This document shows positions 48,201-51,560 of a stretch of 64,000 bases of DNA, piece by piece. The notes beneath the pieces are model-generated. The model saw only the letters and a program-made list of their open reading frames with translations. It made no database searches and was not told the origin of the DNA. This DNA is from Candidatus Multivoradales bacterium (GTDB lineage Bacteria > Acidobacteriota > Thermoanaerobaculia > Multivoradales > JAHEKO01). The stretch lies in NCBI GenBank assembly GCA_965223855.1, contig CBDCXM010000009.1:128001-192000 (forward strand). Reading direction: 5' to 3'. Positions within the stretch are counted from its first letter, which is position 1. Every line of letters begins with the position of its first letter. A program made the translations under genes and the position numbers.

Positions 48201-49565
48201 TCAGCTTCCGGGTGGACAGCCGCCCTGGGCTGCCGAGCGGCGCATGAGGGTCCACTCCCTCCCCTGCGACGGGGGATCGGTCTGAATCGTCAGCACGGCG
48301 CTCTGCACCGAGGTGCCGGCCACACGGCAGAAGCCCATCGTCACGTCGACCGACTCGCCAGGGTTCAACCGTCGTGGAAGGGGGGGCACGGCGTTCACCT
48401 GCCAGTTCGCTCGCGCCGCTTCGTCGACCGCCGCCGACCGGACCGTGACCGGCTCCTCACCCGTGTTGGTCGCGCGGATGGTTCGGGTTCCCGTGCAGCC
48501 GTCCAACGTGCCCGAGAAGCACAGGTCGTCGGGTAGCGGGAACTCGTCGGGGCCGACGACCTCCTCGAAGCTCAGCGCGAAGTCGGGCTCGACTCTGGCG
48601 AGCAGGTCGATGCGATGTTCCCGCAGGCCGAAGCGGTTCTGCGGCGGCACCTCGTAAGTGGTGAAGAACGACAGGGCACCCTCCGCCTGCCCGGAAAGCT
48701 CCTGCCGCGACGCCAGGAAGAAGCCGGCAATCTGGCACCTGCTCGTCCGACTCCCGATCCGCGTGGAGCCTTGCGGAACGAGTTCCAGCAGTCCCTCGTT
48801 GGCGCAGGAGGCCGAGTGGGCATGAAAGCCGGGGTCGGATCCGGGGAGGAGTGGGTTCTCGAGAGCGACGATGTCGATCGGCTCGCTGCGGAGATCGCCG
48901 CAGTTCGTGATCTCGACCACCAGCGACCCAGCGGTCCGACCCTCGTCGAACGTTCCGAAGTCGAAGCTGTCGCCGCACGGTAAGCCGTTGCAGGTGATCT
49001 CGAGGCACTGGTCGGACGGGGGAGGCGGCGGACCCTCACAGAACGGCATGACGGAGGGCGGGTCCTCGAGGCATCCCCTGAGCATCGGGAAGTCGACGGG
49101 CCCCTGGGGGGTGCAGGTCACGCTCTCCGGCCAGACGCACCATGGGCCCTCGTGCCTGTCGAGGAACGTCCCGTTCAGAGCGATCACGTCGGAGGGAATC
49201 CGATCCGGGGTCGCCGCCCAGTCGATGATGTCCCTCCACTCCGCAGTGACGGAGGCTTCGTTGTCGTAGTCCCCGCACTGCGGGCAGCGCGCGCCCGAGC
49301 AGGTCGCCAGCGGCAGCCGTGGCAGCGCTTCCCCATCGACGTTCCGCACCAGGTCCGTGTGACGGAGACTCGAGAGGGTCTCGACGTGCCCGTCCGCACT
49401 CTGCAGCTGAGCCACGCAGTGATAGCTGGTGCCCTCCTCTGGCGGATCGGAGTGGTAGACCGGTCTAGTCGGAGCTGCGAGAAAGCAACCGGAGGTCGAG
49501 ATCGTCAGAAACGCGATCAGCGACAGGACGGTCGAAGCGTTTGACCGGGCGAGAAGCGAGTACAT
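48201..49565 (-). CDS. Cysteine-rich putative lipoprotein with C-terminal Ig-like (ASH/choice-of-anchor D-like) domains
   Basis: Hydrophobic leader ending TSGC; about 19 Cys; FDFG...VEITNCG and TIRATNTG.EPV.V...LNPGES...V...F...AVLTIQTD; AGGAGG RBS. Confidence 0.7.
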   Translation of the reverse strand: MYSLLARSNASTVLSLIAFLTISTSGCFLAAPTRPVYHSDPPEEGTSYHCVAQLQSADGHVETLSSLRHTDLVRNVDGEALPRLPLATCSGARCPQCGDYDNEASVTAEWRDIIDWAATPDRIPSDVIALNGTFLDRHEGPWCVWPESVTCTPQGPVDFPMLRGCLEDPPSVMPFCEGPPPPPSDQCLEITCNGLPCGDSFDFGTFDEGRTAGSLVVEITNCGDLRSEPIDIVALENPLLPGSDPGFHAHSASCANEGLLELVPQGSTRIGSRTSRCQIAGFFLASRQELSGQAEGALSFFTTYEVPPQNRFGLREHRIDLLARVEPDFALSFEEVVGPDEFPLPDDLCFSGTLDGCTGTRTIRATNTGEEPVTVRSAAVDEAARANWQVNAVPPLPRRLNPGESVDVTMGFCRVAGTSVQSAVLTIQTDPPSQGREWTLMRRSAAQGGCPPGS

Positions 49566-49736
49566 GGCTGATTCCTCCTGAGTGCGACGTGAGACTCGGG
49601 CTCACGAGTTCAGGCGACACAGGGGAACGCACCACAACATCTCCCGCCACTCTTCCTGACCGATCCTTCGGCCAGCGCAACCGCCCTCGGCCCAGGTACC
49701 GAAGAAACCATCGCCTTGATGACCGGAGCTCCGGAC

Positions 49737-50177
49737 CGCGGCATCGGACAAGCCGGTAGGCGTCCGTTCGAGGAGGGCCTGCCGGGGCCGTGAGGACCCA
49801 GCCGAGTTGCCGATAGCCCTTCCGCTCCGATGCCGCGCAGGGTCCGACAGAGCGGCGCCGACTTCCGCTTCACCGGGAAGCGCCGCGTGCCCTGGCAGGC
49901 CCTCCTCGAACGGGCGCCGGCTCAGGAGGAGAAGCACCAGCGAGCCAAGATCGCTCAGGCAAGCCCCTGCACGGCCTGGATCCTAGAGCGCGGTATCGGG
50001 CAAGCCGGTAGGCGTCCGTTCGAGGAGGGCCCATCAGGGCCGTGAGGACCCAGCCGAGTTGCCGATGGCTCTTCCGCCCTGGTGCCGCGCAGGGTCCGAC
50101 AGAGCGGCGCCGACTTCCCTCCCACCGAGATGCGCCGCGTGCCCTGGCGGGCCCTCCTCGAACGGACGCCGGCTCAG
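49737..50177. repeat. Two ~189-bp structured repeats at 252-bp spacing, each bounded by ~30-bp inverted repeats
   Basis: Copies 49737-49925 and 49989-50177; arms GGCGTCCGTTCGAGGAGGGCC / GGCCCTCCTCGAACGG(G/A)CGCC; internal stems GGACCC/GGGTCC and GCGGCGC/GCGCCGC. Confidence 0.9.
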
Positions 50178-50207
50178 AACCAGAAAGGACTCGAGAGCGA
50201 GAAACGC

Positions 50208-51560
50208 TCAGCCGAGGCCGATGCCGGCGTAGCGAGCCACCGAGTCGCGAGCCAGCATCCGCCGGCCGTCGACCACCAGCGGCTGCCCGTCGCGCCCGCC
50301 GAGCAACTCCGGCAATCGCTCGAACTCTCCCCACCGCGTCATCAGCGCGATTCCATCGACGCCCTCGACCGCCTCCGCGAGCGTCGATGCATAGGAGACT
50401 TCGAGGCCGGCGAGCTCCTTGCGCGCCTCGCCCTCGGCGATCGGGTCGAAGGCGACGACGTCGGCCCCGAGCTCGACCAGCCGGCGCACCACCGGAAGCG
50501 CCGGCGACTCCCGGATGTCGTCGGTCTCCGGCTTGAAGGCGAGACCGAGCACCGCGATCCGGCGACCCGCCACCTCACCCAGACCGTCGATCATCAGATC
50601 GACCACCCGCTCCGGCTGCGCCTCGTTGACGGCGATCACCGCGTCGAGCAGCGCCATCGGCTCCCCGGCCGCCTTGCCGTGAGCGATCAGCGCCTTGACG
50701 TCCTTGGGGAAGCACGAACCACCGAACCCGCAACCCGCTTCGAGGTAGGTCGTGAACCCGGGCGTGACCCGCTCGCCGGCTTCGCGGTCCTCGCCGAGGA
50801 TCGGCGACAGCCGCTTGTCGAGGTGAACACCCCGCATCACCTCGGCGACGTCGACCCCGCCGACTGCGGTCGAGAGATTCGCGATCTCGTTCGAGAACGA
50901 GATCATCGTCGCCAGCACCGAGTTGGCGGCGTACTTGATCATCTCGGCGGTCCTGGGAGTCGTGCGCACGACATCGACTCCTTCGAAGACGGCGTAGAGC
51001 TCTGCCATCGTGTCGATCGCCCGCTCGTCGATGCCGCCGAGGACGATGCGATCGGGATGAAGGAAGTCCTCGACCGCCTCACCCTCGCGAAGGAACTCCG
51101 GATTCATGCCGACGCCGAAGTCGCGGCCCGGCTCGAGGCCGGAGGCCTCCGCCACCGCCGGCAGCACGACCTCCTCGGTCGTCCCCGGCACGACGGTGCT
51201 CTTGACGACCACGACGTGGTAGCCCTCTTTGTCCGCGAGCGCCGCACCGATCTGACGTGCCGCCTGCTCGACGTAGGAAAGATCGATCCGCTCCCCAGCG
51301 AACGGCGTCCCGACGGCGATCAGCGTGAGGTCGCTGCCGGCGACCGCCGGGGCGAGTTCCGTCGTCGCCGTCAGCCGTTCTCCGACGAGCGGCGCCATCA
51401 GGGTCTCGAGGCCACGCTCGTGGATCGGCGGCTCGCCGCGATTGATGCGCTCGACCTTCGCGTCGTCGATGTCGATGCAGATCACCTCGTGGCCGAGATG
51501 CGCCAGGCAGGCTCCGCTGACGAGGCCGACGTAGCCGGTGCCGACGATCGAGACCTTCAT
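50208..51560 (-). CDS. ugd: UDP-glucose/GDP-mannose dehydrogenase
   Basis: IVGTGYVGL, AVGTP, KSTVVPGT, NPEFLREG, KYAAN, GFGGSCFPKD, GLAFKPETDDIRES. Confidence 0.95.
   Translation of the reverse strand: MKVSIVGTGYVGLVSGACLAHLGHEVICIDIDDAKVERINRGEPPIHERGLETLMAPLVGERLTATTELAPAVAGSDLTLIAVGTPFAGERIDLSYVEQAARQIGAALADKEGYHVVVVKSTVVPGTTEEVVLPAVAEASGLEPGRDFGVGMNPEFLREGEAVEDFLHPDRIVLGGIDERAIDTMAELYAVFEGVDVVRTTPRTAEMIKYAANSVLATMISFSNEIANLSTAVGGVDVAEVMRGVHLDKRLSPILGEDREAGERVTPGFTTYLEAGCGFGGSCFPKDVKALIAHGKAAGEPMALLDAVIAVNEAQPERVVDLMIDGLGEVAGRRIAVLGLAFKPETDDIRESPALPVVRRLVELGADVVAFDPIAEGEARKELAGLEVSYASTLAEAVEGVDGIALMTRWGEFERLPELLGGRDGQPLVVDGRRMLARDSVARYAGIGLG

Follow-up and report, generated by a model that had tools for sequence, protein, structure and literature searches.

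Two hairpin elements between two genes of the window

The window, a stretch of 64,000 nucleotides from Candidatus Multivoradales bacterium (contig CBDCXM010000009.1, positions 128,001 to 192,000), contains two direct repeats (49734-49933 and 49986-50185), which are 89% identical and spaced 252 nt from start to start. They lie between two genes on the - strand, both of which are outside the element described here: a 454-aa open reading frame (ORF) without a Pfam match (48201-49565) and a gene for a UDP-glucose/GDP-mannose dehydrogenase (50208-51560). Each repeat carries one hairpin element on the + strand, named A1 and A2 in the following. A first-pass annotation had picked out the pair as a duplicated structured element with covarying stems, and this description turned out to be correct, but the assumption that there are only two copies was wrong. 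A1 and A2 are a head-to-tail pair from subfamily A of a lineage-restricted, interspersed family of intergenic hairpin repeats of ~165-190 nt.

A1 (49757-49920) extends from TAGG at 49757-49760 to CCGG at 49917-49920 and scores 187.6 bits with R1, a covariance model made from A1 and A2, whereas A2 (50009-50172) extends from TAGG at 50009-50012 to CCGG at 50169-50172 and scores 189.9 bits. Each copy has inverted arms of 30 nt that are 93% complementary (49759-49788/49889-49918 in A1 and 50011-50040/50141-50170 in A2), and in the consensus fold of both copies a long closing stem, P1, surrounds two arms, P2 and P3. According to the pair table of the R1 consensus structure, the 5' arm of P1 in A1 (49759-49789) is the partner of the 3' arm at 49887-49918. 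P2 (49790-49848) has a GGACCC/GGGTCC base, is weakly paired in its interior and carries a mini-stem of 3 bp with a CCTTCC loop. It is separated from P3 (49852-49886) by the junction AGA (49849-49851), which the A copies and most copies of the second subfamily, B, have at the corresponding position. P3 consists of a GCGGCGC/GCGCCGC stem, whose pairs are invariant across the three A copies (7/7), and a loop that includes ACCGGGAA. Upstream of the hairpins, the leaders of A1 (49734-49756, +) and A2 (49986-50008, +) agree at 20/23 positions, and downstream follow the tails of unit 1 (49921-49985, +) and unit 2 (50173-50237, +), the latter of which overlaps the 3' end of the dehydrogenase gene from 50208 onwards.

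The + strand folds better than the - strand in both copies. Its folding energy is -118.3 kcal/mol in A1 (z -6.4) and -118.1 kcal/mol in A2 (z -5.8), and 0/200 shuffles were as good, whereas the - strand reaches -114.9 kcal/mol (z -3.9) and -114.7 kcal/mol (z -3.7), respectively, all z scores being based on dinucleotide-preserving shuffles. A comparison of A1 and A2 revealed differences at 17 of the 164 hairpin positions, nine of which fall within seven base pairs and eight are unpaired, and all seven altered pairs (7/7) remain paired. Two pairs are changed on both sides, namely T-A to C-G at 49780/49897 in the closing stem and A-T to G-C at 49815/49826 in the mini-stem, and both compensatory changes had been noticed in the first pass; the other five are one-sided changes between G-T and Watson-Crick pairs, all of them transitions.

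The tails of both units are far less alike than the hairpins (41/67 aligned columns are identical), yet they are homologous, as 0/3000 shuffles reach the score of their alignment. The end of unit 1 also resembles the 3' end of the dehydrogenase gene, albeit weakly (118/3000 shuffles score as high). With homologous tails and this second resemblance being weak, the pair may have originated either from one local duplication or as a head-to-tail dimer. The 252-nt tandem with similar tails and the resemblance to the dehydrogenase 3' end would also fit a purely local stem-loop (for example a terminator or a hairpin that stabilises mRNA) that belongs to the polysaccharide gene cluster, was tandemly duplicated and has no relatives. 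However, relatives of the same architecture occur at >20 other sites of this genome and in other genomes, and we consider a purely local feature very improbable; it survives solely as an account of how the pair arose, that is by local duplication and not by two insertions.

A lineage-restricted family of hairpin repeats

To describe the family we refer to this genome as G000, to four congeners as G001-G004 and to a genus in another family of the same order as g27. In addition to R1 we used R2, the model of subfamily B, and R3, a refined model. The large model searches were run with strict filters and few candidates scored per genome, so that weak copies may be missed in the counts given below.

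Three A copies were detected in G000 with R1. The third one, A3 (G000:C9:1533465-1533634, 62.3 bits), sits between convergent purine-catabolism genes and retains GGCCGTGAGG, CCGACAGAGCGGCGCC and AAGCGCCGCGTGC, while its closing stem is of different sequence: 28/30 pairs form and 17/30 are altered on both sides. Subfamily B first surfaced in a loose motif scan ranked on fold energy and has the same plan as A, with 19 copies in G000 according to R2 and 21 according to R3. The congener G002 has 14 copies with R2 and 20 with R3. Since four B copies reach 24.7-35.9 bits with unfiltered R1 and the cores are of matching length (100-104 nt in all seven A and B elements compared), we treat A and B as two subfamilies of a single family. 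When both were aligned together with MAFFT, the 5' arms were displaced, and this alignment was not used for a joint model.

The distribution of the family is patchy. Within its own family of genomes, R1 found a match in 1/45 genomes (G000 alone), and among G001-G004 it found none (0/4), while R2 matched in 1/4 (the 14 copies of G002) and partial BLAST matches are present at contig ends of G001. In the order sample, R2 matched in 2/151 genomes (G000 and G002) and R3 in 6/151, comprising G000, G002, three genomes of g27 and the unpublished genome G005 with a single match, which enters no other result given here. In the genus g27, R3 matched copies of a third subfamily, C, in 9/40 genomes, one to two in each at 32-41 bits. 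At higher ranks R3 matched in 3/151 genomes of the class sample (G000 and two of g27) and in 1/151 of the phylum sample, which again was G000 alone. BLAST of the 200-nt unit against 60 relatives produced merely short chance matches within coding sequence. A scan of public genome contigs with an A-type pattern that fits 3/36 known copies gave 62 matches, 0 of which were confirmed by R1 or R2, and a scan of public metagenome contigs with a B-type pattern gave 11 matches, of which likewise 0 were confirmed.

A comparison with the curated covariance models of Rfam 15 returned no match: the best hits in window positions 49400-50500, listed up to E 10, have E values of 0.45-7.9 and scores far below the gathering thresholds, and four other loci with A3 and B copies, listed up to E 1, yielded one chance match (E 0.8). 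In the literature, which was searched without an organism-specific query, we found no description of such an element.

Structure is conserved and one strand is favored

The copies share a common plan, in which a closing stem of 30-40 bp encloses a conserved three-way junction of ~100 nt. The order of the core is arm P2, the AGA junction, arm P3 with an ACCGRG-A loop, and then CGT or GTG. The 5' foot is TAGG in 14/22 G000 copies (GTAGG in 8) and GTAGG in 10/14 G002 copies, and the 3' foot CCGG, with the tag form CCGG(C), is present in 21/22 and 12/14 copies, respectively.

The proposal that structure, and not sequence alone, is conserved was confirmed by the larger set of copies. Among the three A copies, 20/59 pairs are altered on both sides and 97.6% of the cells are paired, compared with 35-42% when partners are slid. 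In an alignment of 34 B copies, 23/40 pairs are altered on both sides and 88% of the cells are paired; 0/500 shuffles reach the observed values, and slid partners pair at 29-54%. The alignment was fitted to R2, and such fitting by itself works in favour of the structure. Moreover, the outer half of the stem, which is not part of R2, is still paired in almost every copy, with 658 Watson-Crick, 30 G-T and 11 A-C positions. The recent copies of G002 have stems of identical sequence.

The mismatches also indicate which strand matters. Read on the element strand, G-T outnumbers A-C among the stem mismatches of G000 by 30 to 11 (binomial p 0.004) and among those of G002 by 8 to 5. Together with the better fold of the + strand in both window copies, this bears out the earlier view that the + strand is favored. 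To judge from the usual direction of mutation behind GC skew, a replication-linked mutation bias would, if anything, act opposite to the G-T excess. The element strand is the C-rich strand in 15/22 copies (p 0.13) and in 10/12 single copies with A1 and A2 counted once (p 0.04), but this signal of replication direction is confounded with gene direction and is suggestive only. For orientation, the cumulative GC skew of G000 contig C9 has its minimum at ~0.76 Mb (origin) and its maximum at ~2.98 Mb (terminus), and contig C8 is negative throughout.

A serious rival to a mobile DNA element is that the copies are genes of functional structured RNAs (for example scaffolds that bind protein, substrates of processing or ribozymes), which were multiplied or are mobile but are kept for their working transcripts. 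The function would then reside in the three-way junction as the core, with the long stem serving as a module for processing or stability. This reading has to be taken seriously, given a junction that all three subfamilies conserve and old copies whose copy-specific stems are still paired. In detail, nucleotides of the junction and the loops are conserved across A, B and C while the stems covary, pairing in the copy-specific stems of old G000 copies is perfect, and the excess of G-U over A-C on one strand, the better fold of the + strand and the retention of all changed A1/A2 pairs next to much less conserved tails fit an RNA as well. On the other hand, neither a sigma-70-like promoter nor an intrinsic terminator was found at the window copies, the G000 copies lack conservation in the sequence upstream of them, and the orientation relative to neighbouring genes is mixed in a crude gene call based on GC3 (GC content at third codon positions). 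The missing Rfam match, the absence from orthologous sites of congeners described below, the patchy distribution and a partial decay of stems in orthologous g27 copies also speak against a functional RNA, and on balance we regard it as possible but doubtful.

Two more specific RNA candidates gained no support. A bacterial Y RNA, the partner of Ro60/Rsr, was rejected, as TROVE was found in 0/5 genomes searched, with a positive control in Deinococcus radiodurans, and the Rfam comparisons of the window region and the four other loci gave no match to Y_RNA or YrlA. The guide-like RNA suggested in the first pass has no support in the genome: the variable stems match nothing else in G000, and a function of the stems as guides to sites of the same genome was rejected for this reason.

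It had further been proposed that the leader pairs with the internal loop and forms a pseudoknot. This complementarity is real in both window copies. The A1 leader sequence CGCGGCATCGGA (49737-49748) is perfectly complementary to 49826-49837, a run of 12 nt that was equalled in 14/2000 leader shuffles, and in A2 a run of 13 nt with three G-T pairs (49988-50000 with 50078-50090) was equalled in 17/2000 shuffles, which makes the complementarity of leader and arm moderately unusual in the window copies. However, these are two non-independent sequences, and leader-to-core pairing above shuffled expectation was found neither in A3 nor in any of the 19 B copies tested, for which reason we rejected it as a feature of the whole family. 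Position 49826 could pair either with leader position 49748 or with mini-stem position 49815, and both of these possible partners are changed alike in A2.

The family behaves as mobile DNA

The family behaves as non-autonomous mobile DNA, since it is present in many copies, is absent from orthologous sites, shows a burst of copies in G002 and is not consistently linked to any gene. At the site of the G000 copy C9:1810158 the flanking genes are 16-78 nt apart in G001-G004 compared with 346-394 nt in G000, and at the site of the copy C9:2124571 the gap is 45-185 nt in G001, G002 and G004 compared with 268-318 nt in G000. At both sites these gaps of the congeners are too short to hold the element; the second site contains 907 nt of other DNA in G003. 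Two flanking proteins with which an orthologous empty site was sought are not conserved in the genus. On the 3' side of the dehydrogenase gene, G002 has a 50-nt spacer after the stop codon followed by a different neighbour gene and no element, and no element was found within the 88 nt available in G001.

The G002 copies are 82-90% alike in BLAST comparisons, and this likeness extends ~35 nt into the 5' flank and ~70 nt into the 3' flank, which points to a recent burst of copies in this genome. By the same crude gene call the copies are located in intergenic regions, and their neighbours are unrelated housekeeping genes, so that no protein gene is consistently adjacent to the element. The copies of G000 are arranged as three inverted pairs, one three-copy cluster and the A1-A2 tandem pair, and no obvious similarity was noticed on reading five spacers of inverted pairs. 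At the one filled/empty site that was aligned no target-site duplication is visible, and neither a duplication nor an exact insertion boundary could be defined, because intergenic DNA is unalignable between the species.

Long inverted termini, interspersed intergenic copies, differences in presence and absence among congeners and the G002 burst of similar copies could also be explained by a miniature inverted-repeat transposable element (MITE) of a DDE-type insertion sequence, with the stem representing terminal inverted repeats (TIRs) and the pairing maintained by palindrome correction at the DNA level instead of selection on one strand. However, the termini are the least and the interior the most conserved part of the family, which is the reverse of a MITE, and mechanisms that act on double strands would not be expected to leave more G-T than A-C mismatches. 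In addition, the two short internal arms covary as well, the aligned filled/empty site shows no target-site duplication, and no longer core-bearing copy is present among the model matches, a parent insertion sequence not having been searched exhaustively. A MITE therefore appears quite unlikely to us.

A probable REP-like element and the search for a mobilising enzyme

In G002 the family is directly coupled to a known type of repeat. The 3' flank of the long hairpin ends in a 7-bp hairpin followed by CTAC, which corresponds to a canonical GTAG REP (repetitive extragenic palindrome) on the other strand. This 25-nt REP, consisting of GTAG and a 7-bp stem, is located in inverted orientation ~35 nt 3' of the long hairpin and is present in 48 copies at ≤3 mismatches, for example at C20:12485-12509 and C165:9621-9645, while a reversed control gave 0. 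At the same threshold, 0 copies were found in G000, G001, G003 and G004. The G002 unit is thus a doublet: the long hairpin is one of its two partners, and each outer end bears a tag of the GTAG type. Such a layout is described for REPINs (PMC3733652, section 5; PMC3337134, abstract).

What we observe is multi-copy spread, compensated structure, strand bias and insertion polymorphism. We think it rather probable that the family represents a non-autonomous, REP/REPIN-like mobile hairpin element, which is unusually large and complex and acts as a single strand. Because the stems tolerate G-T or G-U but not A-C, the fold seems to be kept on one strand, from which we infer a single-stranded active form. 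This form would most likely be top-strand DNA, which a trans-acting, structure-specific enzyme of the HUH/Y1 kind (RAYT, the REP-associated tyrosine transposase, or TnpA of IS200) may bind and cleave at the stem foot, and the elements would be mobilised in the same mode as in REP/REPIN systems. The enzyme, its cleavage sites and the single-stranded DNA mechanism are proposals. As a local effect, transcripts crossing the elements would carry very stable hairpins.

With regard to this enzyme, Pfam Y1_Tnp matches are present in G000 (16), G002 (10) and G003 (3), and none of the Y1 genes of G002 shares a contig with any of the 48 REP copies. A 219-aa RAYT-like gene of G000 (C9:452705-453364, L060:1459-2118) scores 68.6 bits with the NCBIfam model REP_Tyr_transpos, whose cut-off is 80, and is flanked by inverted copies of GGTGACAGGATACC and not by the element, in which it resembles the TIR-flanked tyrosine transposases covered by section 16 of PMC3733652. 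A second group in G000 is a family of ~315-aa Y1_Tnp genes with at least 15 loci (e.g., C9:526261, C9:93439 and C4:8540) and 65-95% DNA identity, the closest copies of which share ends of the type CCGGGTGAATAGT; the copies at C4:8540 and C9:93439 share 3.5 kb at 95% identity. These genes, which are similar to those of insertion sequences, were rejected as parents of the element, as was an IS200/IS605-derived palindrome-associated transposable element (PATE), because the CCGGGTGAATAGT ends are unrelated to it. On G002 contig C62, a list of ORFs, read without a family search, shows short or overlapping frames only between the two inverted REPs and no RAYT.

Several observations weigh against a REP/REPIN-like element. 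The NCBIfam cut-off for RAYT (80 bits) is not reached in the five genomes searched, the best value being 73 bits, and this best match occurs in G003, where no hairpin copies were found, while G151, a carrier of a copy, has none. The nearest of the 16 Y1_Tnp genes of G000 is ~37 kb away from any R1 or R2 copy, and the Y1 genes carry their own ends, which are unrelated to the element. The tag (G)TAGG is found in 0/11 copies of the third subfamily in g27, where the 5' foot is CAGCC in 9/11 copies and the 3' foot GGCGGGTG in 9/11. The mid-stem of the G000 copies has a nearly copy-specific sequence, unique in the genome, and is paired nevertheless, which would not be expected if selfish copies simply decayed. 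Furthermore, the C-rich strand is opposite to the strand used by IS608-type elements, and the aligned filled/empty site reveals no duplication or exact boundary. Finally, the GTAG REPs described in PMC3733652 (abstract and section 5) are 20-40 nt long with stems of 6-13 bp and loops of up to 27 bp, compared with 164-190 nt, stems of 30-40 bp and a "loop" that is a 100-nt branched interior in the family presented here.

In other respects the family resembles GTAG REPs and REPINs. As described in PMC3733652, these are palindromic, lie outside genes and bear a tag of the GTAG type at their 5' foot, they fall into subfamilies with complementary stem changes and frequent G-T pairs, they occur as head-head, tail-tail and head-tail dimers and clusters (section 5) and their distribution is patchy and lineage-specific. 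The long hairpin joined to a canonical 25-nt GTAG REP in G002 adds to this. The family differs in having tens of copies, not hundreds, and in the missing tag of subfamily C, and differs from a REPtron in that no RAYT gene is flanked by the hairpin repeats and none attains the NCBIfam cut-off. Thus, among the three candidates named in the first pass (an RNA or ribozyme, a guide-like RNA and a non-autonomous element for a GTAG-recognising enzyme), the last one fares best, as the copies are interspersed, absent from orthologous sites and coupled to a REP in G002, but the part of the proposal concerning the enzyme and the tag stood only partially, with no RAYT tied to the family and no tag in its third subfamily.

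Larger palindromic repeats that fold as RNA hairpins, such as Correia/NEMIS, ERIC and RUP-type MITEs, are 100-200 nt long, intergenic and can form long hairpins in transcripts; their terminal inverted repeats are kept and target-site duplications are present. In contrast, the family described here conserves its branched interior, while its termini vary between copies, and it showed no duplication. HEARO or omega RNAs of IscB and TnpB have a conserved multi-stem scaffold and several copies per genome, and Rfam holds such models. The hairpin family has no match in Rfam and no adjacent nuclease or transposase gene, and its variable part is a double-stranded stem and not a single-stranded guide.

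It is also conceivable, although unlikely, that we are dealing with a new class of structured nucleic acid, in which a three-way-junction module of ~100 nt would act as RNA or single-stranded DNA with a protein partner, the mid-stem of 15-20 bp, rewritten copy by copy but paired, could be a cassette for specificity or processing and more than a product of drift, and the whole would be mobile and self-propagating, with no counterpart described so far.

Among the mobile DNA that persists in bacteria, REPs and REPINs are known best, and they are tiny hairpins. The family has similar habits and is distinct by its conserved 100-nt junction and by stems of 30-40 bp that stay paired despite turnover of their sequence. 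If a structure-reading, single-strand enzyme mobilises the family, this would widen the range of cargo of such enzymes, and the compensated stems would provide a natural series for studies of recognition; if the junction works as RNA, it would represent an undescribed RNA class. For annotation, the family accounts for long "empty" intergenic regions in this lineage and marks breaks in short-read assemblies.

Observations on neighbouring sequences

DNA contigs from public runs (four runs of one study) cover the region of the window copies. In X1-X3 one piece spans the junction of the units (49837-50030), and the number of contigs joining across either unit is 0 in the four runs, which is evidence for neither side. 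A search of sequencing runs listed no RNA data set with these elements. The DNA contigs also reveal a second strain at window positions 49461-49718: it has 22 substitutions within 49534-49718, none of them beyond 49688, and 75 other letters in place of a 72-nt stretch (49461-49534), while no difference was reported within the two window hairpins. Within the genus, the best relative of the 454-aa ORF (48201-49565, -) has 29% identity, and a paralog of 33% identity lies at G000:C9:384628-385845. Leads from an atlas, all below 0.9, point to ASH/HYDIN-type Ig-like domain proteins.

Another interspersed repeat of G000, unrelated to the hairpin family, has in common a GTAGATTCAGTG... stretch that follows GCAGCTACGTCGAGGAGCGCAG. 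It is present in 18 copies, e.g., at C2:19778 and C9:841157, and a Y1 gene is found within 30 kb of only one of them (C2:19778, at a distance of 2.4 kb).

At L037:1858-1920 and the orthologous sites of G002-G004, a promoter-like stretch of CTTGACACC ... GCTAGCTT is conserved, which is the sole alignable part of this intergenic region across the four genomes of the genus, the G001 segment ending before it. In the purine-catabolism cluster next to A3 (L016:46-1023, G000:C9 at ~1.532 Mb), one ORF combines an allantoicase repeat with an OHCU decarboxylase domain and adjoins the HIUase gene and a DUF6986 gene.

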